Origin: a virus
Taxonomy: Duplodnaviria > Heunggongvirae > Uroviricota > Caudoviricetes
Strand: one strand, 5' to 3'
DNA length: 64,000 nt
IMG/VR virus record: IMGVR_UViG_2703718833_000007
Location: 6,191-70,190 of that record
Both the position numbers and the translations under genes were made by a program. Of the stretch, positions 31,476 to 53,414 are shown in pieces (the stretch's first letter is position 1; every line of letters begins with the position of its first letter). The notes under the pieces were generated by a model, which ran no database searches, was not told the DNA's origin, and saw nothing but the letters and a program-made list of their open reading frames with translations.

Positions 31476-31490
31476 CCGGGCCTTTATCTT
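31459..31490. terminator. Bidirectional hairpin terminator between convergent genes
   Basis: gcccgg-aattaa-ccgggc with T-tracts on both strands. Confidence 0.55.
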
Positions 31491-31792
31491 TATTTGTATG
31501 CTGCAAATCTGCATCTTGCCTCATCCAGATCGTGAATATCGTACACGTTATCGTAAATGTAAGTTGCAACCTGTGCTTTCTGTACGTCAGTTGCGTTAGG
31601 GAACTCCATGCTTACAAAAGTCACTGCATCAACGTAGTTCTTAAACATTTTTTTGTTAACGCACAGTGCGTAAATCAATACACCAGGCCAGAAAATCAGC
31701 GCGCCAATGAATGCCATGAGCATATTCAGATGTTTTTTCTGCGCTACAGCCATAGTTACTACGAAGCCGATGAGTGCAATTACCAGTTCCAT
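31490..31792 (-). CDS. Opposite-strand moron: membrane protein (2 TM) with soluble C-terminal domain
   Basis: Track ORF 100 aa; GAGAGGTG SD; inserted between tail chaperone and tape-measure genes. Confidence 0.5.
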   Translation of the reverse strand: MELVIALIGFVVTMAVAQKKHLNMLMAFIGALIFWPGVLIYALCVNKKMFKNYVDAVTFVSMEFPNATDVQKAQVATYIYDNVYDIHDLDEARCRFAAYK

Positions 31793-32167
31793 GATACACC
31801 TCTCATTTACGTTTATCTTCGGTTGTCATTGCCAGCACTAGCACAGCCATCACATTAAATGCTAACCATTCTGTAATATATACATCTATAACCGTTTTGA
31901 TTGCGTCCATTTACCCGCCCCGCTTATTTCTTGTTTTTAAGTGCTTTCAGCATTTCTTCGATAAAGTCGGCATAGTGCTCATGCTCGTTGGGTCGGTAGT
32001 AGTTTTTCATTTTCTTATCCTCTTTTGCTTCCTCCGGTTAATCCGGCCTTCTAAATCCCTTTACTCTATCCCTTTCCTTTAGCCTCTTTATACAAAATGT
32101 ATTCGTTGAAGTGAAGCCATTTTGTATAAAATAGAGATCAGGATCACACTTTTTACGAGGTTAAATC

Positions 32168-34513
32168 ATGGCTACCAGTTTAGGTACAATTTATTACGAA
32201 GTTGATGCAAAAACTGGTCAACTTCTAGTCGCTCAGAGACAGGCTGATCAGGCTTTTGACAGTATAGAGCGCGGCGCAAAACGTGCCGACCGCCAGGTGA
32301 ACACGCTTAAGACTTCAATCAAAGCACTATCCAGGGTCATCCATCTGTTACTTGCTGCGGAGGCTGTGCGCCAGTTTATTGACATGGCGGAGCAAGCAAA
32401 AATGCTTCGTGTCAAAATTAAAATGCTCACAGGTGACGCAGAGGCTGCAGGACGTGTTTTTGACGGCCTGAAAAAAATATCAAAGGAAACCGGGCAAAGC
32501 CTTAAAGACACTGGCGAATTGTGGCAGGGCCTGGCTATTTCACTAAAGAACACTTCCGCTACGGAAGGCCAATTGCTCAACCTGGTTGGCACTATTCAGA
32601 AGATGGGTGCGTTAGGAGGCGCGTCAGCGGAACAGATGTCTAATTCTATGCGCCAGTTCCGCCAGTCTATAGACGGCGGCGTGCTGCGTGCTGAAGAGTT
32701 TAACAGCCTGTTAGAGAACACGCCGACCATCGTACAGACAATGGCCCGCCATATGGGGTTGTCAATGGGCCAGTTCCGCGCCGAAATGCTGGACGGCAAG
32801 ATCACGGCTGAAAGGATGGTTAACGCGATTCAGGCAGCTACACAGGAAACAAACGAGAAGTTTGCACAGTTGCCGCGCACGTCCGGCAAGGCTATCAATG
32901 AGCTTAAAGTTGAGGTGATGGGACTTGTCGAACAGTTAGACGATCTTTTCGGCATATCAGATGGCGTTGTGTCGGCAATAGACTTAATCACTGGTGGCGT
33001 TGAGGGATTAGGTAAAGGCGCAAAATTCGCCGCAACATGTTTCAATACACTAAAAACGGCTGGCAGTGAGTTCATAGACATGTTTGACGACGTGGCTGTT
33101 AAGGCTGGCGAGGTGGCGGAAGAAATCATTAGAATGGTAACGCCAATCAAGGCGCTAATGGATGGCTACAAATGGATGAAGGAGATTGTAGGAAAGCAAA
33201 CAGAAGAATATAACACCAATTATGAGAAGAAATACGGTAAAAGACTTGGTAAGGGAATGCAATTTTGGGATGATTGGCAGGCCGTACTTAACCAAACAAA
33301 AGAAAACAAAGGAACCGACACCGCTAACGACGGCAAGATCACCGGATTCGAGCCGCCAGTAGATAAGCCAGGAAAACCGAAAAAAGGCAAAAAAGACAAG
33401 AAATCTGAAGCTGATCGGCTTGGTGATGAAGGTGTAAGTGTCTCCGACCAGTACAACAAAGACGCCGCCGCTATGCGTAAAGCACTGGAGAACGGCAAGG
33501 CCATTGACGCTGCGTTTGCTCAGGGCAAAATAACCCTCCTTGAGTACAAGGCAGCGCAAAAGGGGATAGGCAAGGAACTGAAGGACGAATTGGCACAAAT
33601 CCCGGTAGAAGAATTGCAGGACAAATGGGCGCACATAGTAAGCCCGATGGATCAGCTTAAGGGCGAAATTGACCCAATCAAACAGGCGCAGAATGAATGG
33701 GCAGTAAGAAAGCAAATGTTATTAGACCTGGGCGCTACAGAGGCGCAACAGAGACAGGCGCAGTTAGAATATGAACAACAGATCCGCGATCTGAAGTGGG
33801 AGCAGTGGCAGGCGCAAAGCGACACAAACAGCCTGATCGGTGCTTGTGTTAGCGGCCTCAAAGGTGGCATGGGTAATGCTCTTACCGGCCTGCTAAACGG
33901 CACTCAATCATTAAGCGAGGTTTTCGCCAACCTGGGAAGCAGCATACTTAACACCGTTGGCAACAAACTCTCAGAAATAGCCGCTAACTGGATAGCAGAT
34001 CAGTTAATGATGGAAACGCAAAGCAAGGCTACCCAGGCAAGCACTGCGGCTGGCGCTGTGGCTGCCCAGGGTGAGATCGCGGCAGCGGCGGCCCCGGCAG
34101 CGGCGGCTACGGCTGCATCAACTGGCGGTAGTTGGGCTATGGCTGGTGCTGCGGCGCTTTCTGCGATCATGTCGCTGGCAACGTCAATTTTTGGCGGCGG
34201 GCGTTATAATGGTGGTTCTGTGAATGGTGGTAGTCTGTATCGCGTAGGGGAACACGGAATACCTGAGCTATTCCAGACGAGCAACGGGCGTCAGTATATG
34301 ATCCCTGGGGAAAATGGCAGGGTTATTCCTGGCCGCGATCTTTTCAGTGGTGGCGGCATTAATATGCCTGTTAACATCACTGTTCAGACCACAAACGGGT
34401 TTAGCGACGAGGACAGTCGCAGACTTGAGCAGACAATGGAACGTGTAGCGATGAAAATGATGGCAAGGGAATCGCAACGACCGGGCGGAATGTTGCAACC
34501 TCGCCGCAAATAA
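32168..34513 (+). CDS. Tail tape-measure protein
   Basis: Track ORF 781 aa; helical N-terminal two-thirds, Gly/Ala-rich C-terminal region; position. Confidence 0.9.
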   Translation: MATSLGTIYYEVDAKTGQLLVAQRQADQAFDSIERGAKRADRQVNTLKTSIKALSRVIHLLLAAEAVRQFIDMAEQAKMLRVKIKMLTGDAEAAGRVFDGLKKISKETGQSLKDTGELWQGLAISLKNTSATEGQLLNLVGTIQKMGALGGASAEQMSNSMRQFRQSIDGGVLRAEEFNSLLENTPTIVQTMARHMGLSMGQFRAEMLDGKITAERMVNAIQAATQETNEKFAQLPRTSGKAINELKVEVMGLVEQLDDLFGISDGVVSAIDLITGGVEGLGKGAKFAATCFNTLKTAGSEFIDMFDDVAVKAGEVAEEIIRMVTPIKALMDGYKWMKEIVGKQTEEYNTNYEKKYGKRLGKGMQFWDDWQAVLNQTKENKGTDTANDGKITGFEPPVDKPGKPKKGKKDKKSEADRLGDEGVSVSDQYNKDAAAMRKALENGKAIDAAFAQGKITLLEYKAAQKGIGKELKDELAQIPVEELQDKWAHIVSPMDQLKGEIDPIKQAQNEWAVRKQMLLDLGATEAQQRQAQLEYEQQIRDLKWEQWQAQSDTNSLIGACVSGLKGGMGNALTGLLNGTQSLSEVFANLGSSILNTVGNKLSEIAANWIADQLMMETQSKATQASTAAGAVAAQGEIAAAAAPAAAATAASTGGSWAMAGAAALSAIMSLATSIFGGGRYNGGSVNGGSLYRVGEHGIPELFQTSNGRQYMIPGENGRVIPGRDLFSGGGINMPVNITVQTTNGFSDEDSRRLEQTMERVAMKMMARESQRPGGMLQPRRK

Positions 34514-34519
34514 ACAAAA

Positions 34520-34547
34520 CCCCGGTACAATGCCGGGGCTATTTTTA
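34520..34547 (+). terminator. Rho-independent terminator after tape-measure gene
   Basis: ccccgg-tacaatg-ccgggg hairpin followed by T-rich tract. Confidence 0.7.
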
Positions 34548-34984
34548 GTTGTTCTCAAAACTTGTATATCCTCTTTCAATTTTTCCACCGTGTACGCTTC
34601 TGGCAAATACCGCGTCAGTATACCTGAAAAATGGGCATGTATATGTATCCCCTTTACTATCCATATATTTTAGCACCCATGCTATGCGTTTTACGTTGCT
34701 TTTATTTGCCGGATTTTTCATTTTATTTTTCCTCCGCAAATCACAATCTTCCGTTTCTTGCTATATAGCTGCGAGCAAACATCACCTGCCAGATGTTCCA
34801 AATCTCACGCCACGTAAATTCATCATCTTCCATATCTCACACCATCGCGCTTGTATGGTTCGCCATCAGCAAACGGGATTAACTCATCGTTTGCCACCAT
34901 TCGATTAAACCAGTCTTTCAGAACAACCAGGGAGAACCGGATCCCGTAACTGTGCAATTCGCGCCACCTCATTTATGTGCCACC

Positions 34985-35491
34985 CTATTTACCGTGATTT
35001 GGATGAAAACCGTATTTAATTTCGGATTCTTGCCTTGCCTTGATTGCATCATCTTTGCTTTTGAATACCCCTAAATGTTTTAATTTTCCGTTGATTCTGA
35101 TAACTGCGCACCATTTACGCAATCTTTCAAGCCAATAAACACCAGCACAGCCGGATTTATTATTATGGTTGCGACTTCTGTTGTGGTTATTGTCTTGGCA
35201 GGTAACTAGCCGCAAATTTTCTATATGGTTGTTTACCTTATTGTGATCGATATGATCTATTTCCATTCCTTCCGGGATTGGTCCGTTGTGCATTTCCCAT
35301 ATAATTCTATGCTCTTGGTATATCCTCCTGTTAAACCCTACATGTATATACCCACTTCGTTTATGAAGGCACCCGGCTCGCTTTCCCGCATATCTTGAAT
35401 TCCAGGTTTTGGAAACGCCATTTCTTGGCTTCCATAATATAGCGCCGTCACTGTATATAAAATAATCATTCCAGTTAATTACTTGTGACAT
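34985..35491 (-). CDS. HNH homing endonuclease (HNH_3 + AP2-like), paralogue 4 of 4, opposite strand
   Basis: Track ORF 168 aa; INWNDYFIY, GPIPEGMEIDHIDHN, SGCAGVYWLERLRKWCAVI motifs. Confidence 0.85.
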   Translation of the reverse strand: MSQVINWNDYFIYSDGAILWKPRNGVSKTWNSRYAGKRAGCLHKRSGYIHVGFNRRIYQEHRIIWEMHNGPIPEGMEIDHIDHNKVNNHIENLRLVTCQDNNHNRSRNHNNKSGCAGVYWLERLRKWCAVIRINGKLKHLGVFKSKDDAIKARQESEIKYGFHPNHGK

Positions 35492-35733
35492 CCGCGCACC
35501 CCTGACAATTCATTAAATTTGTGATGCTCGACGATTACCCATGCTTTCAAGTCCTGGCTATAAACACGCCAATCTAAATTGGCGCGGAAGGCGTAGCCGT
35601 AGCCGTCCTTTAATTTTTTGGGTGCAACATCCTTGTTTAAAAACGCGTTCAGAAGTGCTTTTGCTTTTTTGATTACGTGTCCAGGTGCGTTTTTCTGTGC
35701 TTTAAGATTTTTGTCAATCATTACCAATTTCAT
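35479..35733 (-). CDS. Hypothetical protein, possibly RelE/ParE-fold toxin-like
   Basis: Track ORF 84 aa; WRVYSQDLKAWVIVEHH loosely resembles the RelE/ParE C-terminal strand pattern; weak. Confidence 0.35.
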   Translation of the reverse strand: MKLVMIDKNLKAQKNAPGHVIKKAKALLNAFLNKDVAPKKLKDGYGYAFRANLDWRVYSQDLKAWVIVEHHKFNELSGVRGCHK

Positions 35734-35753
35734 AACTCACCCCACGCAATCCA

Positions 35754-35909
35754 TTAGTTGACCACTTTCAGGAAGAAATCACGGTATTCATCTTCTTTTG
35801 CGTTCATCATGAATTGACCGTATTTGAATGCGTCATCAAAGCCTTTTACAATCGCCACTTCCACCTGTTCGAATGCTTTGTTTAGCATTACCACTACATA
35901 GCGTTTCAT
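35754..35909 (-). CDS. Hypothetical small protein (51 aa), upstream partner of the 84-aa ORF
   Basis: Track ORF 35754-35960 trimmed to MKRYVVV with G-rich SD. Confidence 0.35.
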   Translation of the reverse strand: MKRYVVVMLNKAFEQVEVAIVKGFDDAFKYGQFMMNAKEDEYRDFFLKVVN

Positions 35910-36024
35910 GATGCCCCCCCTTTGTTGGTACTTCTTTCTCTTCTTGCTTTCTATATACATCTTGTTATGTCCTGTGTGAAGCCATTTTGTAAACTGGGTA
36001 TAATTCTTGTGACGAAGTTCTCAT

Positions 36025-36052
36025 TTTTCGCGTAGAAGCGCGTAAAGATGTA
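36025..36052 (+). promoter_or_regulatory. Conserved 28-bp near-palindromic element, copy 2 (TTTTCGCGTAGAAGCGCGTAAAGATGTA)
   Basis: 25/28 identical to copy at 22811-22838; lies between CCATTTTGTAAA/TATAAT element and gene M. Confidence 0.35.
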
Positions 36053-36079
36053 TGCAATATGTAACTTATAGGGGGAATC

Positions 36080-36433
36080 ATGCCGGAAGTTTTCAGATGG
36101 ACGCCACAAAGAAGCTACAGCGTGACCAGGGAACCAAATGTGTCGGTCGTTAAACTTGGTGATGGTTATGAACAGCGCCAGGCGAAAGGGATTAACACGT
36201 TGCTTGATAGCTACACCCTGGTTTTTAAAGGCAGTAGCGCAGGATGCGGTGATGGTGGGAACGTGGCGATCCAGGCAGAAGCATTCTTGAGGGCGCGCGG
36301 CGCTGTCGAGGCTTTTTACTGGTCGCCGTCTATGGATGGCGTGCAAAGGCTTTTTGTTTGCCGTAGCTGGAGTATGACAAAAGACGGGCCTGTATACACG
36401 CTAAACGCAACATTTGAGCAAGTTGTCAGCTAG
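36080..36433 (+). CDS. Minor tail protein M (lambda gpM-like)
   Basis: Track ORF 117 aa; GDGYEQRQAKGIN and C-terminal FEQVV match remembered lambda M. Confidence 0.8.
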   Translation: MPEVFRWTPQRSYSVTREPNVSVVKLGDGYEQRQAKGINTLLDSYTLVFKGSSAGCGDGGNVAIQAEAFLRARGAVEAFYWSPSMDGVQRLFVCRSWSMTKDGPVYTLNATFEQVVS

Positions 36434-36444
36434 TGGGGGTTAAT

Positions 36445-36630
36445 ATGTACGGGACTTGTGTAGTTGACAAAACTGACGCATTTACATTATTTGACGACTA
36501 TGAGATCAACGACCTTACTGTAAAGGCTGACAATGGCGATACATGGTATCTTCATGATGTTGGTGACGGGTATGTGGGGTGCAGATCCAGAGAAGGCAAG
36601 GAGGTTTTATTTTTGGTTGATGGCGTATAA
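36445..36630 (+). CDS. Hypothetical protein (61 aa)
   Basis: Track ORF 36433-36630 trimmed to ATG. Confidence 0.35.
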   Translation: MYGTCVVDKTDAFTLFDDYEINDLTVKADNGDTWYLHDVGDGYVGCRSREGKEVLFLVDGV

Positions 36631-36809
36631 TAACAACCCCGCTTCGCGCGGGGTTTTCTTGTCAGTAGTGAATGTACATCAAACTCATTGGGTGAGCGTG
36701 CGCCATATTATTGGCTATCGCCGCCCAGTCCCAATCGGCAGCATGAACGCCAAATACTATCAGTCCCATTATTATTAGCGCCAAAACTTCTATTTTCATA
36801 ATCTGTCAC

Positions 36810-37058
36810 CTATAAGTTATCACGCAGGTAATTAACGCCCTTATCAGTGACGAATGAATGGTTGACCTGGTTTTCATCCGTCATAATGATGAATAACTTT
36901 TCTTGTAGGTACTTAGCTTTCGGGTACAGCGTTAAACAGACCTGGTACAGTATCCCGCGCTCAATCAGCAAATCAATAAATTCGTGCTCATGATAACCGA
37001 TGATGCGAGCGGCCTGTTTCAACGTGTACACATAATCGCCGTGATTGCGCCGCGCCAT
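36810..37058 (-). CDS. Opposite-strand moron: hypothetical protein with HTH-like segment
   Basis: Track ORF 82 aa; YTLKQAARIIGYHEHEFIDLLIERG. Confidence 0.4.
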   Translation of the reverse strand: MARRNHGDYVYTLKQAARIIGYHEHEFIDLLIERGILYQVCLTLYPKAKYLQEKLFIIMTDENQVNHSFVTDKGVNYLRDNL

Positions 37059-37067
37059 ATTGCCGCC

Positions 37068-37418
37068 TTATTTATCGAACGCAGACAAATTATCGATACA
37101 GAAATCTTTTGCCGCTTTTTCGTATTCGCGTTTTGCTTCTGGAACGTCAACCGGAAAACCTTTTGCGTGTATTTCACCAGGGCAAGACTGATCCATAGAA
37201 TCCGCAAAATTAACATTGAAGCTAACATCAATATCTTTAGGGTTCATCTCTTCCACCATATCAGGTACTTGGACCGGAGTAATATCAAAATCACGAGCGT
37301 TAGACCAACAGCGAAGTAATTCGCGACCTTCATCACGCGCCGCAGCATATGTGTCAAATAGGCCCATGCGTTCCCATTCACATTTATCAGTCCAAATTTC
37401 TAAACTATATTTTTGCAT
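37068..37418 (-). CDS. Opposite-strand moron: hypothetical acidic protein
   Basis: Track ORF 116 aa. Confidence 0.4.
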   Translation of the reverse strand: MQKYSLEIWTDKCEWERMGLFDTYAAARDEGRELLRCWSNARDFDITPVQVPDMVEEMNPKDIDVSFNVNFADSMDQSCPGEIHAKGFPVDVPEAKREYEKAAKDFCIDNLSAFDK

Positions 37419-37431
37419 TTTTGTTAACCTC

Positions 37432-37605
37432 TCATTTGACAGGTTCTATCCTGTACCCCAAAACGCGGTCATCCTCAGCAAGTAAAAGCGCGTCAGTAAG
37501 TGCCTCGCCTTCATCCTTATACAGAGCTACAGTCATTTCCCTGCCATCCGCTAGGAATACCTTCAATCTCCACACCTTATCAACCATCTCACACCTCCGC
37601 GCCAT
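37432..37605 (-). CDS. Opposite-strand moron: hypothetical protein (57 aa)
   Basis: Track ORF 37432-37662 trimmed to MARRCEM. Confidence 0.35.
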   Translation of the reverse strand: MARRCEMVDKVWRLKVFLADGREMTVALYKDEGEALTDALLLAEDDRVLGYRIEPVK

Positions 37606-37715
37606 TTTGTTAACCCTGCTTTCTTTTGAGTACAATATACATATTGTAAAAAGCGCTATCAACCGTTTTGGTATGATTTAGCGTGACGGCGATCACAAAA
37701 TGACAAGGTGATAAA

Positions 37716-38420
37716 ATGCGCAGCATACCTACAGAAATGATTATTGATTCCGTGGATTCCGGAGTCGGCGCGGTAATTGACTTGTTTGAATTGGACCTCA
37801 CGCCCCTGGGTGGCGAGGTTATCCGCTTCCATTCCGGCGCGAATGGCTATTACGGCCCGGTTATCTGGAAGGGAGTGGCTTACAACAGCTACCCAATCGA
37901 GGTAACTGGCTTCGAAATGAAAAACGAAGGCGTTTACTCACGCCCACAAATGGTAGTAGCTAACATTGGCGGGCTAATCACTGGGATGAATAACGATTTT
38001 AACGACCTTCGAGGAATGAAGGTTACGCGCCGCCAGGTGGAAGTAAAATACCTTGACGCTATCAACTTCCCCAACGGCAACCCAGATGCAGATCCATCTA
38101 TTGAGGCTGTATCTTTTTACGTCGTTGAGGCGATGAGCGAAGAAACAGCCGACCAGGTGCAATATGAACTATCAACGCCAATTGATGCTGATAAAGCTGT
38201 TATCCCTGGGCGCACAATTCTCGCTGACGTTTGCCAATGGCAGTATCGCGGAGACGGTTGCGGATATAGTGGCGGCCCTGTAGCTACTGATAAAGACGAA
38301 TCGACCAGCGATCCAAAGATGGACAAATGCAGCCACCGCCTAAGCGGTTGCCGTTTGCGTTTCCCGCGCCCGAATCCGTTACCAATTTCATGTTTCCCTG
38401 GATCGAGCAAGGTGGGTTGA
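37716..38420 (+). CDS. Minor tail protein L (lambda gpL-like)
   Basis: Track ORF 234 aa; C-terminal Cys cluster; position. Confidence 0.8.
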   Translation: MRSIPTEMIIDSVDSGVGAVIDLFELDLTPLGGEVIRFHSGANGYYGPVIWKGVAYNSYPIEVTGFEMKNEGVYSRPQMVVANIGGLITGMNNDFNDLRGMKVTRRQVEVKYLDAINFPNGNPDADPSIEAVSFYVVEAMSEETADQVQYELSTPIDADKAVIPGRTILADVCQWQYRGDGCGYSGGPVATDKDESTSDPKMDKCSHRLSGCRLRFPRPNPLPISCFPGSSKVG

Positions 38421-39640: not shown

Positions 39641-42600
39641 ATGAGTAGCGGCGGCGGCAAAGCCAAAACACCAACATTATTAAACGATAACCTGTATCAT
39701 AAACAGTTTTATCGTGTTTTAGACATTCTCAGCGAGGGGCCGATATACGGTCCGGTAAACCAGAATGCGCCATTAAACAACGTAATGCTTAATGACACGC
39801 CTATCACTGACGCAAACGGAAACACATCAATCCCGGGGATTAGTATAGCCTGGCGCAACGGCACGGCTGACCAGTCGCCGATTAATGGTTTTAATGCTAT
39901 CGAATCAACCGTTATTGTTAACGCAAAGGTAACTCACGATACACCAATAATCAGGACTGTTTCAGATCCAAACGTTAACCGCGTAAGGCTGAATCTTGGC
40001 GTTGATTCTCTGGTTCAGTCAGATGATAAGGGCAATCAATATAATACATCCGTTATGTTGATGGTTGATGTTAAACCGTCATCATCTTCTACGTGGTCGC
40101 AAATTAAAATCATTACCATCGGACCAGGTAAACAGAGTGGTGAGTATCTTGAAGCTCATATCATAGATGCACCCAATGAAAAACCGTTTGATATTCGCGT
40201 GCGCCGCATAACAGCAGATAGCAACAGCGATCTATTGCAGAATGATACGCGATGGAGTAGCTACAGCGAAATCATAGACGATAATCTGTCTTACCCTCAC
40301 ACCGCTGTAGCTGGCGCCGTAATTGACCATGATCAGTATACTGATACGCCTACCCGTAACTATCACCTTCGCGGGCTGATTGTTGATGTGCCGGACAACT
40401 ATAACCCTGAAACGCGCACGTATTCCGGTTTATGGCTTGGTGGATTTAAAAAAGCGTACACCAATAACCCTGCGTGGCTTTTCCGGTATCTGGTTAAAAA
40501 TGAACGTTTCGGGCTTGCCCGTCACGCTGGTTACATTGACGTTGATGACGGCGCATTGTATACGCTTTCTCAATACTGTGACCAGTTGGTTAGCGACGGT
40601 TACGGCGGCTTTGAACCTCGCATGACGCTTAATGCTTACATCACGGAGCAAATGAGCGCACGCGACTTGCTGGATAATATTGCTGGCATGTTCCGTGGTA
40701 TCGCGTTATGGGATGGGCAACGCCTTACCGTGATGATTGATGCGCCACAGGATCCAATTGCCACCATCACAAACGCAAACGTCGTTGATGGTGTGTTTAC
40801 TCGCTCAAGTCTTCCGCTTGCAGAGTGTTACAACGCCGTGATCGTATCATGGACTGACCCGGAAAACGGCTGGGAGCAATCAAAAGAATACGTGGCAGAT
40901 GATGAATTGATCGCCCGCGATGGTTATAACGAAACCACGTTGGAGGCGTTCGGTTGCACGTCACGCGGTCAGGCGTACCGCGCTGGCAAATGGCTGATAG
41001 AAACAGCAAAACGCGAACCGTCAAAATTCACGTTTAAAATGGCCCGTGACGCAATTCACTTCACCCCCGGGGATATTATCGAGATACTCGACAATAACCG
41101 CGCTGGCGCACGTTTAGGCGGTCGTATCGTGTCAAACACTGGCAGGGTTATCACTGTCGATAAGGTTGATTCTGAATACATCGCCCCAGGTGACACCATT
41201 AGCCTGCTTGATAGTGATGGCAAGTTTAAAAAACACCAGATCACTGGGGTTAACGGAAACAAAATCACCCTTGCATCCGCCCCGTCATGGATTCGCAACG
41301 GGACTGTTTTCGCTGTATCAACCAACGCGGCAAAACCCGTATTGTGTCGAATCATCAGCGTAGCAGAAACAGAAAATAACAGCGTGTACACCATCGAGGC
41401 TGCGCAGCATGATCCGCACAAACAGGCCGTAGTTGATGAAGGCGCGATCTTCGAGGTAAACAACGACACCCTTAATCACTTCCGCGTGCCTAACATTGAA
41501 AACCTGAAGGTGTTAAATGTTGGTTCTGAGACAGTTCAATGCCGCGCGACATGGGAAACACAGACGACAACGCATCGCCTGACCTTTGAGATCCGCGTAT
41601 ATAACGCCGAAGGCCGCGTGGTGGAAACTTATGAAACCACGAATTACCGCTATGAATTTTATGGCCTCGACGCTGGCAGTTACACGCTTGGTATTCGCGG
41701 GCGTAATGACACTGGCATGAAGGGTGCGGAAAGTATTGTGGACCTGGTTATTGGTGTACCATTGGCCCCTGTCGGCGTTAATTGGGTTCCTGGTGTTTTC
41801 CAGGCAACAGTATACCCGATCAGCAAAACAACCATGACCACTGATACAGCATATGAGTTCTATTTCTCAGGTGAAAATCAGATCACAGACCCATCAAAAG
41901 TAACCACATTAGCGCAGTTCACCGGGCGTGGCTACCAATGGACTTTTGGCGGCATGAACACGGGCCATACCTATTACGTTTATGTCCGCACACGTAACGC
42001 TTTTGGTGTGTCAGATTTCGTTGAGGCATCAGGAAAACCAACTGAAAACTTCGATGAAATCAGCGACTACGTGACGAAGGATGTTATGGGGTCAGAACAG
42101 TTTAAGGACATGATTGGCGACATTAAAGATCTTGGCGACCGCACAGATGTTATTGAAAATGCTACAAATGAACTAAAAACAGCGACCGGCAACCTCAAAA
42201 CTGCAACTGATAATCTGACAAACATAACTGACGATTTAAGAACTGAAACCGACAACCTGACCAACATAACCGAAGATTTAAGAACTGACACTGACAACCT
42301 GATCACAGAAACAGGATCAATAAAAGCTGATACCGATACGCTAAAAAAAGAAACAGAAGATCTTTATAAAAAAGTTAAGGAAAACGCCGATGATATTGGT
42401 CAGCATGAGTCAAGAATTGACTCATTAGAAGTGTCCAGCGAAAAAGTTGGCAGCGAACTGGCGCAAGCAAAAGCAAGCCTGCAAAACGCGTCACTTGCTC
42501 TTATTAATAACTCACTTGCACAGACAAACACGCGCGTAACTCTTACCGCTCAGTACAATAAAGGCAGGGCAGAGACCAAAGCGCAAATTGACCGCATTGA

Positions 42601-44980
42601 CAACGTTATCGCTGAAGAGAAAAAAGCGACAGCGGAATCACTGGAAACCATCACGGCAGAAATGAACACGATGGATTCTAACCTTAAAGGTCAGATTTCT
42701 AACGTGCAGCGCGCAGTAGCTGACGAGGCCAGCGCCCGCGCTGAAGCTATTAACGGTGTAAATGCCTCAATAAGCAATCTTGATAAGAAAACTGACTCCA
42801 GCGTTAACCGCATTGATCAAGCGATCGCTGACGAGACGAGCGCACGGACTCAAGCCATCAGCGACGTAAATGCAAGTATCTCAACGCTAGACAAGAAAAC
42901 TGACGCCAGCGTTAAACGCTTGGATCAGGCAATTGCAGATGAAACCAGTGCAAGAACTGAAGCCATCAGCGGCGTGAATGCCTCAATTTCCACGCTTGAT
43001 GGCAAAGTTACAAGCAATATTAACCGCATTGATAAAGCGATTGCAGACGAAACGAAAGCACGCACCGACGCGATCAGTAGCGTGAATGCAAGTATTAGCA
43101 CACTTGAAAACAATACAGAATCAGAAGTAAGCAGACTGGATCAAGCGGTTGCAGATGAAACCAGTGCCCGCACCCAGGCCATTAGCGACGTTAACGCCTC
43201 AATAAGCAATCTTGAAAGCAAAACTGACGCGAGCGTTTCCCGTCTTGATAAAGCAATATCAGATGAAACGCAGGCAAGAAGCGACGCAGTAACAGAGGTT
43301 AAAGCTAATTTAACGACGCTTGAAAATAGCACAAACTCCAGTGTTAAGCGCCTTGATCAAGCCATCGCCGACGAATCAAGCGCCAGGGCGCAGGCAATAT
43401 CAGGCATCAGCGCTGAACTTGGTATAGTTGAAAAAGATGTTGACAAAAACAGCGACGAAATAAATCAGACTAAAGCAAGTCTGCAAAACGCCTCAATCGC
43501 ACTTATCAACAACTCTATCGCTCAGACCAACACGCGGGTTACTCTTACTGCCCAATATAAGAAAGGTCGCAGAGAAACCAACGCGCAAATTGACCGTATT
43601 GACAATGTTGTAGCAGAGGAGAAAAAAGCCACTGCAGAAGCCATTAGCTCTGTAAACGCATCGATAACCGAACTTGATAAGAAGACAGAAGCAAGCGTTA
43701 GCCGCCTTGATAGAGCGATTGCAGACGAAACGAGCGCCCGCAGCGAGGCCATCAGCGGTGTGAATGCCTCAATTTCCACGCTTGATGGCAAGGTGACAAG
43801 CAACGTAACCAGGATGGATAAGGCGATTGCAGACGAAACGAAGGCCCGTACTGACGCAATAAGTAGTCTTAACTCATCGCTTACCAGTACGATTAATTCT
43901 AAGGTATCAGAGGCGTCAACGGCACTTTCTACGCATGAAGCATCAAGCGCAGAAAAATTTAGCCAGATCTCTGCGTCTTTCGAATCTGTAAACTCAAGTA
44001 TTACAGAATGGTCGCAGGCAATGGCAACGGCTGACGAGGCATTATCAAGCAAAATTGATCAGTTGACAGTAACAGTTAACGGGAACAAAACGGCGATAGA
44101 GACGACATCGAAAGCGTTAACCGACTTCAAAGGTAATGTTGATGCGTCGTACTCTATCAAGCTGGCGACCGACAACAACGGAATGAAATACGCAACAGGT
44201 ATGTCGCTTGGCCTCACTGGTGACGGCACTAACTTTCAGTCGCAGTGTATTTTCCTTGTTGACCGTTTCGTGTTAATGACCGCAGCAAACGGCACATATA
44301 CAACGCCTTTCTATGTCACCAATGGCGCAATGTATGTAAGAGAAGCGTTTATTAAGGACGGCACTATCAACTCCGCCAAAATAGCTGATCTAATACAGTC
44401 AGTTAATTACAGCTGGGAAAACGGTACAGGATGGGCGATAAATAAAGACGGTAACGCAGTATTTAACCAGGTAACAGTAAGGGGTACGGTATACGCCACA
44501 AACGGTAAATTTACTGGTGAGATTCAGGCCACAAGCGGGACGTTTAAAGGGACTGTACAGGCTAACAAATTTGTCGGTGATATTGTGGCTATTCACACTT
44601 TCCCTGATTCCAGCACTGTCTATAACTCAAGCCAGCGTGTAGCGCGTTTCTGTTATCGCTATGTGGACTCAACATCCGAAGAGACTTATAAAAACGTTAT
44701 GTTCCAGGCAAGGTTATCAGGGGCTACCAACACATCACAGATCAATGCCTGGATAGCTGGTTCTCAGGTATTGGTTGGTAAGAAATACGGTAACGAAAAC
44801 TCAAACGGCATGTTCTGTTTCGGTATGGATGGTGTAACAAATCAGATTGTCGATGTTGTTATCGAGATCTACACTCCGTGGTCAACAGGTAACAACACTG
44901 GGATTACGTTAAGTTGTCCGACCATGTTTATAGGTCGCAGTAACGGCACATGGTCGAAATGGGAAGAATCACACGACTAA
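39641..44980 (+). CDS. Host-specificity / central tail fibre protein J (lambda gpJ-like) with long internal coiled-coil repeat region
   Basis: Track ORF 1779 aa; position after I; repeated ~38-aa units (ADETSARTQAISDVNASISTLDKKTD...). Confidence 0.9.
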   Translation: MSSGGGKAKTPTLLNDNLYHKQFYRVLDILSEGPIYGPVNQNAPLNNVMLNDTPITDANGNTSIPGISIAWRNGTADQSPINGFNAIESTVIVNAKVTHDTPIIRTVSDPNVNRVRLNLGVDSLVQSDDKGNQYNTSVMLMVDVKPSSSSTWSQIKIITIGPGKQSGEYLEAHIIDAPNEKPFDIRVRRITADSNSDLLQNDTRWSSYSEIIDDNLSYPHTAVAGAVIDHDQYTDTPTRNYHLRGLIVDVPDNYNPETRTYSGLWLGGFKKAYTNNPAWLFRYLVKNERFGLARHAGYIDVDDGALYTLSQYCDQLVSDGYGGFEPRMTLNAYITEQMSARDLLDNIAGMFRGIALWDGQRLTVMIDAPQDPIATITNANVVDGVFTRSSLPLAECYNAVIVSWTDPENGWEQSKEYVADDELIARDGYNETTLEAFGCTSRGQAYRAGKWLIETAKREPSKFTFKMARDAIHFTPGDIIEILDNNRAGARLGGRIVSNTGRVITVDKVDSEYIAPGDTISLLDSDGKFKKHQITGVNGNKITLASAPSWIRNGTVFAVSTNAAKPVLCRIISVAETENNSVYTIEAAQHDPHKQAVVDEGAIFEVNNDTLNHFRVPNIENLKVLNVGSETVQCRATWETQTTTHRLTFEIRVYNAEGRVVETYETTNYRYEFYGLDAGSYTLGIRGRNDTGMKGAESIVDLVIGVPLAPVGVNWVPGVFQATVYPISKTTMTTDTAYEFYFSGENQITDPSKVTTLAQFTGRGYQWTFGGMNTGHTYYVYVRTRNAFGVSDFVEASGKPTENFDEISDYVTKDVMGSEQFKDMIGDIKDLGDRTDVIENATNELKTATGNLKTATDNLTNITDDLRTETDNLTNITEDLRTDTDNLITETGSIKADTDTLKKETEDLYKKVKENADDIGQHESRIDSLEVSSEKVGSELAQAKASLQNASLALINNSLAQTNTRVTLTAQYNKGRAETKAQIDRIDNVIAEEKKATAESLETITAEMNTMDSNLKGQISNVQRAVADEASARAEAINGVNASISNLDKKTDSSVNRIDQAIADETSARTQAISDVNASISTLDKKTDASVKRLDQAIADETSARTEAISGVNASISTLDGKVTSNINRIDKAIADETKARTDAISSVNASISTLENNTESEVSRLDQAVADETSARTQAISDVNASISNLESKTDASVSRLDKAISDETQARSDAVTEVKANLTTLENSTNSSVKRLDQAIADESSARAQAISGISAELGIVEKDVDKNSDEINQTKASLQNASIALINNSIAQTNTRVTLTAQYKKGRRETNAQIDRIDNVVAEEKKATAEAISSVNASITELDKKTEASVSRLDRAIADETSARSEAISGVNASISTLDGKVTSNVTRMDKAIADETKARTDAISSLNSSLTSTINSKVSEASTALSTHEASSAEKFSQISASFESVNSSITEWSQAMATADEALSSKIDQLTVTVNGNKTAIETTSKALTDFKGNVDASYSIKLATDNNGMKYATGMSLGLTGDGTNFQSQCIFLVDRFVLMTAANGTYTTPFYVTNGAMYVREAFIKDGTINSAKIADLIQSVNYSWENGTGWAINKDGNAVFNQVTVRGTVYATNGKFTGEIQATSGTFKGTVQANKFVGDIVAIHTFPDSSTVYNSSQRVARFCYRYVDSTSEETYKNVMFQARLSGATNTSQINAWIAGSQVLVGKKYGNENSNGMFCFGMDGVTNQIVDVVIEIYTPWSTGNNTGITLSCPTMFIGRSNGTWSKWEESHD
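42100..43900 (+). repeat. In-frame tandem and segmentally duplicated coding repeats within gene J
   Basis: Repeated DQAIADETSAR...NASIS units and two copies of KASLQNAS(L/I)ALINNS(L/I)AQTNTRVTLTAQY block. Confidence 0.7.
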
Positions 44981-47085: not shown

Positions 47086-47459
47086 TGTACCAAATAGTGA
47101 CCAAATTTTAAAAAACAAAACTAAATCATACATAACACACTGTTTTTAAAGAGATAATATTTAACATTAACCATTCCAGACAGGACTGGTGAGTAAGTCC
47201 AGGGTATTGAAGTTGTGCGTAATCATTGAGATCCCGTTATTTTTATCAATTTTTGTTGCTATCCGATCGCAAAAAAGCCACGTCATATGATCAGATAATT
47301 CTGATAATGATAGACGCTATTTAACACTTCACACGGTTTGTATACGGATAAGCATTTTGCTTTTTGTATTCAATTTAGACAGAATTTTATTAATCATTTC
47401 AGGGTAATGGGGTGATGAGATGTTGCGTAACAGGGCCAGAAGGCTAGACTACAAAATAA

Positions 47460-48464
<1,005 letters not shown>

Positions 48465-48941
48465 CAAAAGCAATTTTTCCGGCTGTCTGTATACAAAAAC
48501 GCCGCAAAGTTTGAGCGAAGTCAATAAACTCTCTACCCATTCAGGGCAATATCTCTCTTGCAGGTGAATGCAACGTCAAGCGATGGGCGTTGCGCTCCAT
48601 ATTGTCTTACTTCCTTTTTTGAATTACTGCATAGCACAATTGATTCGTACGACGCCGACTTTGATGAGTCGGCTTTTTTTTGCCTGTTATTTATCAGCGT
48701 CTACCCTTTAAGAGTCCACCCAATGACCAGAGGGAAATATGACGACACTTATTTATTTGCAAATTCCTGTCCCTGAACCGATTCCTGGCGATCCTGTTCC
48801 AGTGCCCGATCCGATCCCTCGCCCGCAACCCATGCCTGACCCACCACCCGATGAAGAACCGATTAAATTGTCGCATCGTGAGCGTAGATCTGCGAGGATA
48901 CGCGCCTGCTAACTTTGCGTCGATGACCACGAGAATAGATT

Positions 48942-50315
48942 GTGACCGCTTTTTCTACCCTGAATGTTTTGCCTCCCGCCCAACTCACGAACCTTAATGA
49001 GTTGGGTTATTTAACCATGACGCCGGTGCAGGCCGCCGCGCTTCCGGCGATCCTTGCCGGAAAAGATGTTCGCGTGCAGGCGAAAACCGGCAGCGGCAAA
49101 ACGGCGGCTTTTGGCCTCGGCTTGTTACAGCAAATTGATGCGTCGCTATTTCAAACCCAGGCTTTAGTGCTGTGTCCTACGCGTGAACTGGCGGATCAGG
49201 TGGCAGGTGAATTGCGTCGGCTGGCGCGTTTTCTGCCAAATACCAAAATTTTGACGTTGTGCGGTGGTCAACCGTTCGGTATGCAGCGTGATTCGTTGCA
49301 ACATGCGCCGCATATTATCGTGGCAACGCCGGGGCGTTTGCTGGATCACCTGCAAAAAGGCACGGTATCACTGGATGCGTTGAATACGCTGGTGATGGAT
49401 GAGGCCGACCGCATGCTGGATATGGGATTTAGCGATGCCATTGATGATGTCATCCGTTTTGCGCCTGCATCTCGACAGACGCTTCTGTTTTCGGCAACCT
49501 GGCCGGAAGCCATCGCTGCAATCAGCGGACGAGTGCAACGCGATCCTTTGGCGATTGAAATTGACTCAACAGATGCTTTGCCACCCATTGAACAACAATT
49601 TTATGAGACATCCAGCAAAGGCAAAATTCCTCTGTTGCAACGGTTATTAAGCTTGCATCAGCCATCCTCTTGCGTGGTGTTTTGCAATACCAAAAAAGAT
49701 TGCCAGGCTGTCTGCGACGCGCTGAATGAAGTAGGGCAAAGTGCATTGTCATTACACGGCGATTTGGAGCAACGCGATCGCGATCAGACCCTGGTACGTT
49801 TTGCTAACGGTAGCGCCCGTGTACTGGTCGCGACTGATGTTGCTGCGCGTGGTCTGGATATTAAATCGCTTGAGCTGGTGGTGAACTTTGAGCTGGCGTG
49901 GGACCCTGAAGTTCATGTACATCGCATCGGTCGTACAGCTCGTGCAGGAAATAGCGGTCTGGCGATCAGTTTCTGTGCTCCGGAAGAAGCACAGCGGGCC
50001 AATATCATTTCTGACATGTTGCAGATAAAACTTAACTGGCAAACGCCGCCAGCTAATAGTTCCATTGCGACGCTGGAAGCAGAAATGGCAACGTTGTGTA
50101 TCGATGGCGGGAAAAAAGCCAAAATGCGCCCGGGTGATGTATTAGGTGCACTGACAGGAGATATCGGGCTTGATGGCGCAGATATTGGCAAAATCGCCGT
50201 GCATCCGGCGCATGTCTATGTCGCGGTCCGTCAGGCTGTTGCTCATAAAGCATGGAAACAGTTACAGGGCGGGAAGATTAAAGGAAAAACGTGCCGGGTG
50301 CGGTTATTAAAATAA
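48942..50315 (+). CDS. dbpA: ATP-dependent RNA helicase DbpA (DEAD-box), host gene
   Basis: Track ORF 457 aa; Walker A AKTGSGKT, DEAD box (VMDEAD), SAT, HRIGRTAR motifs. Confidence 0.95.
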   Translation: MTAFSTLNVLPPAQLTNLNELGYLTMTPVQAAALPAILAGKDVRVQAKTGSGKTAAFGLGLLQQIDASLFQTQALVLCPTRELADQVAGELRRLARFLPNTKILTLCGGQPFGMQRDSLQHAPHIIVATPGRLLDHLQKGTVSLDALNTLVMDEADRMLDMGFSDAIDDVIRFAPASRQTLLFSATWPEAIAAISGRVQRDPLAIEIDSTDALPPIEQQFYETSSKGKIPLLQRLLSLHQPSSCVVFCNTKKDCQAVCDALNEVGQSALSLHGDLEQRDRDQTLVRFANGSARVLVATDVAARGLDIKSLELVVNFELAWDPEVHVHRIGRTARAGNSGLAISFCAPEEAQRANIISDMLQIKLNWQTPPANSSIATLEAEMATLCIDGGKKAKMRPGDVLGALTGDIGLDGADIGKIAVHPAHVYVAVRQAVAHKAWKQLQGGKIKGKTCRVRLLK

Positions 50316-50335
50316 TGAAATGTTGAATTGCCGGG

Positions 50336-50432
50336 TGCAAGAGTAAACATCTTATTCGGGATTGCCGGATGCGACGCTGGCCGCGTCTTATCCGGCCTCC
50401 ATAAGAGTAGCCCGATACGCTTGCGCATCGGG
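50336..50432. repeat. REP/BIME-type repetitive extragenic palindromes between dbpA and ttcA
   Basis: tgccggatgcgacgctggccgcgtcttatccggcc and gcccgatacgcttgcgcatcgggc match the E. coli REP pattern. Confidence 0.7.
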
Positions 50433-50443
50433 CGCTATCCTGG

Positions 50444-51379
50444 TTATTTCACTTCAACCACATTCAGCCGTAACTCATCCAACTGATTTTCATCTTCTTC
50501 TGGCTGCCAGCACGCCGGTTGTAGTGGGATCTCTTCGCGATCAAACGCCAGATCACCCCCGTTAACCACTTCAGAACCGTGGGTGATGCCTTTGAAATCG
50601 AACAGGTTGGTATCGCACAGATGCGACGGCACCACATTCTGCATCGCGCTGAACATCGTCTCGATACGCCCTGGATAACGTTTATCCCAGTCACGCAACA
50701 TGTCAGCAATCACCTGACGTTGCAGGTTAGGCTGTGAACCGCACAGGTTGCACGGAATAATCGGGAACGCTTTTGCATCGGCAAATCGCTGAATATCTTT
50801 CTCGCGGCAGTAGGCCAGCGGACGAATAACGATATGTTTGCCATCATCGCTCATCAGTTTCGGAGGCATACCTTTCATCTTACCGCCGTAGAACATATTT
50901 AAGAACAACGTTTGCAGGATATCGTCACGATGGTGACCCAACGCGATCTTCGTCGCCCCCAGTTCCGTTGCGGTACGATAAAGGATACCGCGACGAAGGC
51001 GAGAACACAGTGAGCAAGTGGTTTTGCCCTCTGGAATCTTCTCTTTCACGATACCGTAAGTATTCTCTTCAACAATCTTGTACTCAACGCCCAGCTTTTC
51101 AAGATACTCGGGCAGAACGTGTTCCGGGAAGCCCGGTTGCTTTTGATCGAGGTTAACAGCCACCAGCGAAAAATTGATTGGCGCGCTTTGCTGCAAATTG
51201 CGCAGAATCTCCAGCATGGTATAGCTGTCTTTACCCCCGGAGAGGCAAACCATGATGCGATCGCCTTCTTCAATCATATTGAAGTCAGCAATGGCTTCGC
51301 CCACGTTACGACGCAGACGTTTTTGTAATTTGTTCAGATTGTATTGTTCTTTCTTTGTAATTTGTTGATTTTCTTGCAT
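50444..51379 (-). CDS. ttcA: tRNA 2-thiocytidine biosynthesis protein TtcA (5' end adjacent to Rac-type integrase)
   Basis: Track ORF 311 aa; PP-loop SGGKDS and Cys motifs. Confidence 0.9.
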
Positions 51380-51430
51380 TATTTCAGTTCTCTGGTACTA
51401 AATGGGGCAAATTGGGGGCAAACTTTGCAA

Positions 51431-52666
51431 CTACGATAACCGCGCATTCAACATGGCTATCTGTTCGTCGTTCATGTCATCAATCCACATACCGTAAATT
51501 TCATACACCATCTGCGCAGTTTCATGCCCCATTTGGCTGGCTATAAATGCCGGGTTCGCTCCTGCCGTCAACAGCCAGCAGGCAAAAGTATGCCGCGTAT
51601 GGTACGGATTACGGCGGCGAATACCAGCACGTTTTACTGCTGCATTCCACCTTGCCCCCAAACTGCTTACCGAGTAATAAGGTTTTTGTTTTCCGTTACA
51701 CACCCTGGGCATGAAAACAAAATGCAGTTTTTGCTTTTCGGTTCTGCCGTACTCCCGATGATAAAAGGTGATTTCGCTTTTGCGATGATGCCCGGTCAGT
51801 TTGTATTGCTCCTTCAGTGCTTCAAGAGCAGGCTGCAGTAGTGTTACTGTTCGGATCCCGGCATTTGTTTTTGGGGGACCGAACATATCAAGTATCGTCA
51901 GGTTTCTTCTGACATTCACTATTCCCTTTTCGAGATCCACATCCTCCCACGCCAGAGCTGCCAGTTCCCCGTGACGAAGTCCTGAGTAAACGGCAAATTT
52001 CCACAAGTTCTGGCTCTGTCCTTTTTCACTTTCCATTAATGCATTGAATTCTGTTTTAGATAACGGATCAGGCTTTATTCTGTTTCGCTGTAATTTTTTT
52101 ACTCCTTCAAATGGTTTGGTTGATATAAATCCCGACTGATACGCAAAACGCAACAGCGAACAGAGCAGGGCGATATAGTTATCAACTGTGCGCACGGTTC
52201 TTCCTTTTTTGTTGGATCTTGGATTATCCAGGTAAAGCGTTTCTCCATGCAGCAGTTCATTCCGGTAGTTTAAGATATCGCTATAACGAATATGTGATAT
52301 CGGGGTACTTTCACAAATTATTATTCTGAGTGTTTTTAATTGTGATTTTGTTTTCTTCATTGTGTATGTTGTTAACTCTGTCTCTTTAATTTTTGTCCAG
52401 ATATCACAAAGCTCTCCGAACGTTTTTATGACTCTCGTTGTCACCATTTTTGCCCCAGTGCTGGACTGGGGAAAACGTCTTAAATACTCAAATTCACCGG
52501 AGTTTATTTCATGAACTATCAGCGCTCTTAAATTTCCGGCCTTTTTAATATTACTGTTTGTAATCTCCCAGCCTTTTAATGTTTCCCGACATCGTTTTCC
52601 TCGAAACATGAACCAGATGCGAATGTATCTACCTCTAATCTCGACACCTGTTGGTAATTTAGACAT
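51431..52666 (-). CDS. intR: Rac prophage integrase (tyrosine recombinase)
   Basis: Track ORF 411 aa; C-terminal catalytic R...HxxR...Y region (NPYHTRHTFA). Confidence 0.9.
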   Translation of the reverse strand: MSKLPTGVEIRGRYIRIWFMFRGKRCRETLKGWEITNSNIKKAGNLRALIVHEINSGEFEYLRRFPQSSTGAKMVTTRVIKTFGELCDIWTKIKETELTTYTMKKTKSQLKTLRIIICESTPISHIRYSDILNYRNELLHGETLYLDNPRSNKKGRTVRTVDNYIALLCSLLRFAYQSGFISTKPFEGVKKLQRNRIKPDPLSKTEFNALMESEKGQSQNLWKFAVYSGLRHGELAALAWEDVDLEKGIVNVRRNLTILDMFGPPKTNAGIRTVTLLQPALEALKEQYKLTGHHRKSEITFYHREYGRTEKQKLHFVFMPRVCNGKQKPYYSVSSLGARWNAAVKRAGIRRRNPYHTRHTFACWLLTAGANPAFIASQMGHETAQMVYEIYGMWIDDMNDEQIAMLNARLS

Positions 52667-52667
52667 A

Positions 52668-52883: not shown

Positions 52884-52961
52884 CGCATCACCTCTGGCAG
52901 GCGCCAATGTTAGACTGAAATTGACGCCCGATGTTGATTATTAATAATAAGCTATGAAGTT

Positions 52962-53358: not shown

Positions 53359-53414
53359 AATTTTTCTCATAAAAAATATTTCAAGTTGGCGGTGCATTAC
53401 ACCGCCAGGCTGAA

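Follow-up and report, generated by a model that had tools for sequence, protein, structure and literature searches.

A four-gene minus-strand operon between tail genes M and L

The window examined here, a stretch of 64,000 nucleotides corresponding to positions 6,191 to 70,190 of the IMG/VR record IMGVR_UViG_2703718833_000007, is a segment of an Escherichia coli chromosome with an integrated prophage. By nucleotide comparison the phage part is 89-95% identical to the mEpimmI group of phages, which was described in PMC11893012 and of which mEp013, mEp021, mEp044, mEp515, mEp554, mEp010 and MagusPhagus are the relatives of this prophage. Between its tail genes M and L lies a cassette of small minus-strand genes, the subject of this analysis (Table 1). 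A preliminary description of the DNA, made without database searches, had reported three such open reading frames (ORFs) and had named the flanking genes as M and L. The three ORFs are present where it placed them, with matches in PHROGs and low ratios of nonsynonymous to synonymous divergence (dN/dS), and Pfam identifies both flanking genes as named. The count of three was too low: a fourth minus-strand gene, h45, ends the operon, and a small plus-strand gene, g65, follows M. The operon order is promoter, p51, p116, KilAC82, h45, terminator, with intergenic spacings of 9-13 nt and Shine-Dalgarno (SD) sequences. The terminator is common to the plus-strand M/g65 unit and the minus-strand operon, and is also annotated in mEp021 and mEp013. 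As g65 on the plus strand belongs to the insert, the whole M|L insert extends over approximately 36434-37600.

Table 1 Positions in the window of the cassette genes, the DNA elements of the cassette and the tail genes around it. GRAVY, grand average of hydropathy; pI, isoelectric point.
Feature	Position	Strand	Remarks
Tape-measure gene	32168-34513	+	
Tail gene M	36080-36433	+	Pfam Phage_min_tail, E=7e-29
g65, small conserved gene after M	36433-36630 (65 aa, GTG 36433) or 36445-36630 (61 aa, ATG 36445)	+	phrog_3249, E=2e-22
Bidirectional hairpin terminator	36635-36655	both	8-bp stem, 6 GC pairs; flagged on both strands
h45, fourth operon gene, 45-aa hydrophobic signal-peptide-like peptide	36662-36799	-	GRAVY +0.88
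KilAC82, 82-aa stand-alone KilAC/ANT-domain protein	36810-37058	-	phrog_5689, E=1e-21; Pfam ANT/KilAC
p116, 116-aa acidic orphan protein	37068-37418	-	pI 4.4; phrog_38567, E=7e-44
p116 C-module, residues 58-116	37068-37247	-	Candidate internal start ATG 37247
p51, first operon gene, 51-aa acidic protein	37432-37587	-	phrog_29559, E=4e-25
Non-coding region, 128 bp	Between p51 and L		
Second motif copy (CCATTTTGTTAAC)	37602-37614	+	In the operon 5' leader
Dyad TACAATAT-AC-ATATTGTA	37631-37648		Core TACAATATGTA (minus strand, 37648-37638) overlaps -10; candidate operator
Cassette promoter (predicted)	37634-37662	-	-35 TTGATA (37662-37657), 17-nt spacer, -10 TATATT (37639-37634); inferred start about 37627
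Upstream motif ATACCAAAACGG	37663-37674	-	Abuts -35; counterpart of TATACAAAATGG at PR
CRP-like palindrome CGTGA-N6-TCACA	37682-37697		Arms conserved, centre variable; about 62 nt upstream of the inferred start, inside the L leader
Tail gene L	37716-38420	+	Pfam Phage_tail_L, E=1e-71; then K, I, J

The sizes first given for the three ORFs, 57, 116 and 82 aa, hold for the second and third. The first gene, p51, most likely starts at ATG 37587 and is 51 aa long, judging from the signals around its possible start codons. Its ORF in the window measures 57 aa from the first ATG (37605) and 76 aa from TTG 37662, and phrog_29559 matches residues 26-76 of the 76-aa form. ATG 37587 has the SD sequence GGAGGT 5 nt upstream, which ATG 37605 lacks; in relatives with another first-gene allele, ATG 37605 opens merely a four-codon mini-ORF; and TTG 37662 forms part of the promoter -35 hexamer. 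On these grounds six codons were removed from the 57-aa ORF, and both longer forms were dropped. The NCBI product name "transporter", which p51 carries in many genomes (for example P0062, P0064 and P0070), was also rejected. With a GRAVY of -0.08, a pI of 4.7 and no hydrophobic segment, p51 is a soluble acidic protein, and the name looks like an annotation artefact.

Conservation of the cassette genes

The cassette ORFs are real genes, and they are under purifying selection. Pooled Nei-Gojobori estimates of dN/dS from about 40 unique relatives (for h45, from 27 unique sequences recovered by tblastn) were 0.11 for KilAC82, 0.23 for p116, 0.23 for p51, 0.20 for h45 and 0.15 for g65, with 0.08 for M and 0.05 for L. 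The preliminary description had named a lack of conserved reading frames among the grounds for its refutation; the frames are conserved (dN/dS 0.11-0.23). The gene order M-g65-(h45)-KilAC-(optional gene)-p116-p51-L is constant in about 50 related loci, g65 being present in 49 of 50 and the h45 family in 27 of 50. Cassette G+C content is 43.2%; the wider structural blocks have 47-48%, and M and L themselves 51-52%. A scan of 34400-38000 with Rfam gave no credible RNA family.

Conservation is uneven along the operon. Identity across the family is 88-99% for KilAC82, 58-91% for p116 and 41-96% for p51; p51 is replaced by unrelated alleles in some prophages, and optional genes of 67 and 75-79 aa are inserted into the cassette in others. 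The promoter-proximal genes turn over quickly, and KilAC82 and the C-terminal module of p116 are retained. Synonymous divergence of KilAC82 is unusually low (pS, the synonymous difference, is 0.27 against 0.44-0.51 elsewhere). Pairwise nucleotide identity is unusually high (0.88-0.92) over the KilAC gene and the adjoining p116 C-module (36810-37202, about 390 bp), and third codon positions of KilAC are 0.84 identical against 0.60-0.70 in M, L, p116 and p51. Recent recombination sweeps or an extra constraint on the DNA or RNA could underlie the conservation of 36810-37202.

Two modules of p116

AlphaFold models the N-terminal domain of p116 (residues 1-50) as beta-beta-alpha-beta with predicted local distance difference test (pLDDT) scores above 90, and the sequence of this domain is variable. 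The C-terminal half has a low-confidence model, yet it is the most conserved part of the protein, with a dN/dS of 0.09 for the C-module and 0.22 for the N-domain. The C-module begins at a nearly invariant Met58, and of 39 unique relatives 37 have GGTGGAA at a distance of 5-6 nt upstream of its ATG. At two loci (L005 and L003) the N-domain carries stop codons and the C-module is still open, and elsewhere the C-module exists as a stand-alone ORF of 56-60 aa. By sequence comparison p116 is modular, with a dispensable N-domain and a conserved, mobile C-module, and the C-module is probably also made alone from the internal ATG at 37247.

One unrelated viral contig of 121 kb in IMG/VR (L053, 2992-3322) carries a stand-alone C-module of 60 aa, 74% identical, directly followed by an h45-like peptide of 45 aa, 58% identical, with no KilAC. 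This pairing suggests that the C-module and h45 move as a unit and may also function as one. When 1.84 billion representatives were searched exhaustively with a HMMER profile of p116, the matches were its own family, fragments and low-complexity noise alone. An hhalign comparison of p51 with the p116 N-domain ran end to end in the expected register, but the match was weak (E=0.0055, 6.6% probability).

The M|L junction as a site of insertion

IMG/VR was searched with the L protein, independently of the cassette, and loci were taken as mEpimmI-type where L was at least 85% identical and both M and L were present. The M-L gap is 1.2-1.9 kb in 40 of the 41 mEpimmI-type loci and holds KilAC and p116, usually with p51. 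One locus, L087 (IMGVR_UViG_3300045988_076424, a 53.9-kb contig; 2870-3001), has 132 nt between M and L, with neither g65 nor any of the four minus-strand genes. It keeps the conserved 115 bp that precede L, its junction lies at the edge of the motif copy found at 37602 in the window, and a now purposeless minus-strand promoter is retained. A sister lineage of 37 loci (L098-L134) has L about 71% identical, its nearest phage records being the Salmonella phages ES18, SPN3UB and Oslo at 70-75% nucleotide identity. The M-L gap is 45-46 nt in 18 of these 37 loci. In another 18 the gap measures 0.47-1.3 kb, and a small plus-strand ORF there precedes an ORF on the opposite strand. The opposite-strand ORFs are of unrelated families, among them a DUF6602 protein (268 aa), a retropepsin-like aspartyl protease (154 aa) and several unknowns of 58-111 aa. 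In the last locus the gap is 179 nt, with no ORF of at least 35 aa.

The GenBank record of ES18 labels the genes at its tape-measure|M and M|L junctions "possible moron". These genes (22, 24 and 25) occupy the same positions as the insertions seen here, in a homologous tail module, and their layout is like that of the cassette, in that M is followed by a small gene on the plus strand and then by a gene, with a terminator, on the opposite strand. Unlike the cassette they encode unrelated proteins (DUF1327 and others) and number one gene per site rather than a four-gene operon, and no copies of a PR-like promoter are reported for ES18.

A moron, in the sense of Hendrix and co-workers, is an autonomous extra gene unit in a phage late operon. 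The cassette agrees with this at the sequence level: M and L are adjacent in relatives, the cassette has its own predicted promoter and terminator, and its base composition differs. The short gaps of 45-46 nt, the diverse opposite-strand genes, the empty L087 locus and the ES18 labels together make the M|L junction a recurrent moron hotspot, and the moron-type insertion proposed in the preliminary description is supported by the same evidence. The cassette is not a recent insertion; it is an old, family-wide, ancestral and dispensable occupant of this site, and its lower G+C content agrees with an old insertion at a hotspot. A KilAC-like protein ("antirepressor KilAC-like") is among the manually defined core genes of 48 mEpimmI genomes (PMC11893012).

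The same cassette is found in the same place in mEp021 (gp71-gp74), in mEp013, mEp010, mEp044, mEp515 and mEp554, and, as equivalents, in MagusPhagus, with nucleotide identities of 91-95% to the mEp phages and 88% to MagusPhagus. The mEp021 cassette has an extra 75-aa gene between KilAC and p116, and the first two genes are 83-94% identical to those in the window.

The single-domain protein KilAC82

KilAC82 passes the gathering threshold of the Pfam ANT/KilAC family (PF03374) with 30.8 against 25.3 bits (E=4e-7), the match covering residues 10-82 of the protein and positions 23-105 of the 108 in the profile. The usual antirepressor architecture has two domains, Bro-N, KilA-N, AntA or Rha together with KilAC, and KilAC82 consists of KilAC alone. 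The mEp021 counterpart gp71 is annotated "putative antirepressor"; with its single KilAC domain, KilAC82 should not be named an antirepressor on this basis. A sequence search of the PDB with KilAC82 gave no significant match.

Single KilAC domains have been studied elsewhere. The KilAC domain of AriS from the Listeria phage phi10403S alone inhibits the SOS response, probably via RecA (PMC9043618); CreP of Acinetobacter baylyi, a single-KilAC protein of 103 aa, is bacteriostatic, causes filamentation and co-precipitates FtsZ (bioRxiv 10.1101/2024.01.05.574328); and the KilA-C part of Phi11 Gp07 inhibits growth of E. coli (PMC5944126). KilAC82 shares with CreP and with the C-terminal domains of AriS and Phi11 Gp07 the ANT/KilAC domain and small size, has a "TxKG" motif (TDKG), and differs from all three in its context, which is a tail module.

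The cassette promoter and its resemblance to the early promoter PR

Pairwise identity across the family reaches 0.90 in the non-coding core 37598-37700, against 0.60-0.70 at third codon positions of the flanking genes. Within it lies the best promoter match in 34400-38000, a sigma-70-like sequence with 10 of 12 consensus positions, directed into the operon. The dyad TACAATAT-AC-ATATTGTA, which is unique in the window, has a pairwise nucleotide identity of 0.95 across the family.

The 59-nt PR promoter (2978-3036), which precedes nutR1 and the N-like gene, was used to scan the 64-kb window. Its three best non-self matches are the promoters of three minus-strand islands, at 35996 (37 of 59 positions), 37678 (34 of 59, the cassette) and 32131 (33 of 59); maxima for shuffled queries had a mean of 31.0 and a standard deviation of 1.2, the largest being 35. 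The argument from PR rests on all three top matches falling at three analogous positions, and the same three sites came out on top when the scan was repeated in mEp021 and MagusPhagus. Common to the four promoters are T(A/T)TACAAAATGG adjoining the -35, a spacer of 17 nt, and an 11-bp dyad, TAC(A/G)-N3-(T/C)GTA, fused to a TATAWW -10, the island at 35996 having an AACA variant. Compared with PR, the cassette promoter has a similar -35 and the same -10. The composite dyad/-10 pattern TACRNNNYGTATAWW occurs three times in the window where 0.12 would be expected, at PR, at the cassette and at one other island (island C).

The core 37598-37700 also holds two copies of the motif CCRTTTTGTWWAC, of which the window has 13 (0.89 expected), at 2137, 2225, 2514, 2980, 7466, 9291, 10774, 10842, 15779, 28446, 32117, 35982 and 37602. 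At the leftward early promoter PL, which has nutL downstream, a copy overlaps both the spacer and the -10; at PR the motif adjoins the -35, and it also marks the promoters of the islands. It probably serves this phage family as its operator or as an UP-like element; PMC11893012 defined no operator for mEpimmI phages. Its assignment to "restart" promoters on the plus strand, serving the tape-measure gene, M and L, was discarded, as the PR scan shows it to be the upstream element of the minus-strand island promoters. Judged by eye, neither the palindrome nor the motif fits the consensus of a LexA, IHF or DnaA site.

Upstream of the promoter lies a CRP-like palindrome (Table 1). GTGA-N6-TCAC occurs five times in the window against 0.84 expected, and copies of GCGTGA-N6-TCACA at 7420-7433, 10796-10809 and 37683-37696 each lie about 60-62 nt upstream of a predicted promoter, namely the internal early promoters 7452-7479 and 10828-10855 (with the motif at 7466 and 10842) and the cassette promoter. 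The predicted spacing would correspond roughly to the geometry of a class I CRP site.

The two other islands

The best PR look-alike belongs to the minus-strand island 34985-35960, between the tape-measure gene and M, whose promoter lies near 35996-35940. Its genes encode a protein of 51 or 68 aa (phrog_29810), a ParE-like toxin-domain protein of 84 aa (PF24732, E=2e-7) and an HNH_3 endonuclease of the homing type with 168 aa, a possible toxin-antitoxin pair with a homing endonuclease by these family matches. The 51-aa first gene of this island proved unrelated to p51 on comparison. Island content varies, with a 436-aa protein at that place in mEp013 and a zinc-ribbon protein in mEp021. The second island, 31490-31910, also on the minus strand and located between the tail chaperone and the tape-measure gene, encodes membrane proteins of 35 and 100 aa that are candidates for superinfection exclusion. 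Its PR-like promoter, near 32131-32073, has the perfect dyad TACATTTTGTA over the -10.

A proposed operator-controlled early operon

The cassette is read here, at a probability of about 0.45, as a moron-type accessory operon of four genes that is transcribed independently, with operator-controlled early expression and a host-directed KilAC82. Dyads placed over the -10 are classically the mark of a repressor site. Since cloned Rep021 blocks all mEpimmI phages (PMC11893012), PR has to be off in the lysogen, and given the architecture that the four promoters share, the promoters of the islands are most simply taken to be off there too and to be active early. A phage DNA-binding dimer, the immunity repressor or a Cro-like protein being the obvious candidate, would hold the operon off in the lysogen, and the operon would fire early after infection or induction. 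A Q-like antiterminator (a Q-like late regulator is annotated in mEp021) would then carry late tail transcription through the terminators. As the islands face the late operon, this transcription would cross them in antisense, and the operon would be silenced later.

Acting early on the host, KilAC82 may inhibit cell division, the SOS/RecA response or both, by analogy with the other single KilAC domains. The acidic, fast-evolving p51 and the two-module p116 might serve as its partners or modulators, or as separate effectors in an arms race, and h45 would be a small membrane or secreted peptide. A more specific form of this proposal, which is put forward tentatively, holds that PR with its dyad was copied to three antisense tail islands, switched on early and off by late antisense transcription; that the KilAC effector blocks division or SOS, maybe contributing to the reported lack of UV induction; and that p116 is its partner, with a mobile 59-aa C-module made from the internal start.

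Several observations weigh against early, operator-controlled expression with a host-directed KilAC82. The timing of expression is deduced from the resemblance between promoters, and the matches of 34/59 and 33/59, taken singly, are within or near the shuffled range. The PR dyad is TACGTGGCGTA in the window and the degenerate CACGGGGCGTA in mEp021, its inner bases differing from those of the island dyad TACAATATGTA, so that the two dyads need not have the same binding protein. The upstream motif that the promoters share might be no more than an UP-like element, as in strong constitutive promoters, and, as L087 keeps the conserved 115 bp with no cassette, part of the conservation may serve the expression of L. 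As for the proteins, outside mEpimmI the phage collection offers as nearest relatives of KilAC82 the C-terminal parts of Rha/antirepressor proteins, 31-39% identical, from phages of Vibrio, Cronobacter and Hafnia, and the predicted model of KilAC82 (pLDDT 70) weakly resembles MerR/excisionase winged helix-turn-helix domains. Such a model looks like a DNA-binding regulator as much as an effector. No relatives of known function were detected for p51 or p116 in Pfam, NCBIfam or PHROGs.

Likeness to known loci is partial. The P22 immI locus (mnt-arc-ant) is an antirepressor locus in the late region, with an operator-controlled promoter and a small first gene of about 50 aa. The cassette may be likened to it, as an antirepressor-family gene among late structural genes; unlike immI, the cassette has a KilAC domain alone, a p51 with no ribbon-helix-helix signature, and no divergent Mnt-like gene.

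Alternative explanations

The preliminary description expected the cassette to be expressed from the prophage, for conversion, exclusion or defence. This is not supported and, going by the PR-like promoter with its dyad over the -10, is probably wrong. A constitutively expressed moron of this kind, in which KilAC82 might, for example, dampen SOS and induction while h45 acts at the membrane, is accordant with the cassette's own promoter and terminator, opposite strand and lower G+C content, with the defence-like genes (DUF6602, aspartyl protease) at the hotspot in the sister lineage, and with the small membrane proteins, typical of exclusion, of the 31490-31910 island. Most mEpimmI phages were also reported not to be UV-inducible (PMC11893012), and KilAC domains can block SOS (PMC9043618). 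Beside the promoter architecture, it is opposed by the absence of any match in PADLOC at E<=0.1 for the four minus-strand proteins or g65, and by the report that the exclusion function shown experimentally in the family belongs to a lipoprotein encoded elsewhere (PMC11893012). We regard it as unlikely.

The cassette might instead be an anti-defence operon of the type formed by anti-CRISPR (acr) and anti-CRISPR-associated (aca) genes, in which p51, p116 and the extra genes, made early from a strong promoter, would inhibit host immunity and KilAC82 would be a winged-helix-turn-helix autorepressor on the dyad, maybe also on the dyads of the other islands. As in acr-aca operons, variable small acidic genes (pI 4.4-4.7) stand upstream of a highly conserved small protein, here with a MerR/Xis-like predicted fold, and an inverted repeat, here invariant, lies over the promoter at its -10; p51 undergoes allelic replacement, some loci have extra genes, and p116 is an orphan family of the sort typical of anti-defence proteins. 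However, no similarity to known Acr, Aca or other anti-defence proteins was found in Pfam, NCBIfam and PHROGs, none of which is dedicated to anti-defence, and an NCBIfam scan of all cassette proteins returned nothing. To our knowledge KilAC is not a described Aca family. The same type of dyad is present at PR and at islands with no KilAC gene, and the KilAC domains that have been tested act on host proteins, not on DNA (PMC9043618; bioRxiv 10.1101/2024.01.05.574328). This explanation, too, appears rather improbable.

A toxin-antitoxin or abortive infection system, with KilAC82 as a CreP-like bacteriostatic toxin neutralised by the acidic upstream protein or proteins, would stabilise the prophage or abort competitors. 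CreP and the KilA-C domain of Phi11 Gp07 inhibit growth (bioRxiv 10.1101/2024.01.05.574328; PMC5944126), the acidic genes upstream are tightly coupled, and the neighbouring island has a ParE-like toxin gene. The extra genes between p116 and KilAC in mEp021 and UMNK88, the p116 C-module that accompanies h45 in L053 with no KilAC, and the loss of the whole cassette in L087 all speak against such a pairing, and p51, p116 and KilAC82 match no known toxin-antitoxin family in Pfam, NCBIfam or PADLOC. A system of this kind is very doubtful. Finally, chance ORFs in a non-coding spacer, which small size alone would favour, are refuted by dN/dS of 0.11-0.23 in about 40 unique sequences, the PHROG and Pfam matches, the conserved order and the SD sequences.

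Surroundings of the cassette in the prophage

From about 47.2 kb onward the window holds host genes (zntB, dbpA, ttcA and the Rac intR/recE region) with more than 99% identity in many genomes. The right prophage-host junction is at about 47.17 kb, adjoining zntB, and the Rac region (intR, recE) and an IS5 element follow (47175-64000). With the Rac region beside the junction, the prophage sits near another prophage remnant. The J-like host-specificity protein (39641-44980) is very long, at 1779 aa, and its centre consists of many repeats of about 35 aa (…RLDQAIADETSARTQAISDVNASIS…).

Significance

Novelty is modest, since the cassette is present and partly annotated in published genomes and its class is well known; if it is not regulated as proposed, it is an ordinary moron cassette already in GenBank records. 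The family-wide reuse of an early promoter at three antisense islands and the mobile p116 C-module make it worth an experiment. KilAC82 offers a tractable single-domain KilAC protein of 82 aa from an E. coli phage in which to ask whether a widespread "antirepressor" domain blocks division, inhibits SOS/RecA or binds DNA, and the conserved 59-aa C-module of p116, moving between unrelated phages, is a further candidate for study. In a collection from human faeces, mEpimmI phages were reportedly found as often as lambdoid phages, and their accessory genes are unstudied. If operator-controlled early expression is correct, these morons would be early genes parked antisense in the late operon, not lysogenic-conversion genes, and would follow a simple rule, being turned on by loss of the repressor and off by late transcription.

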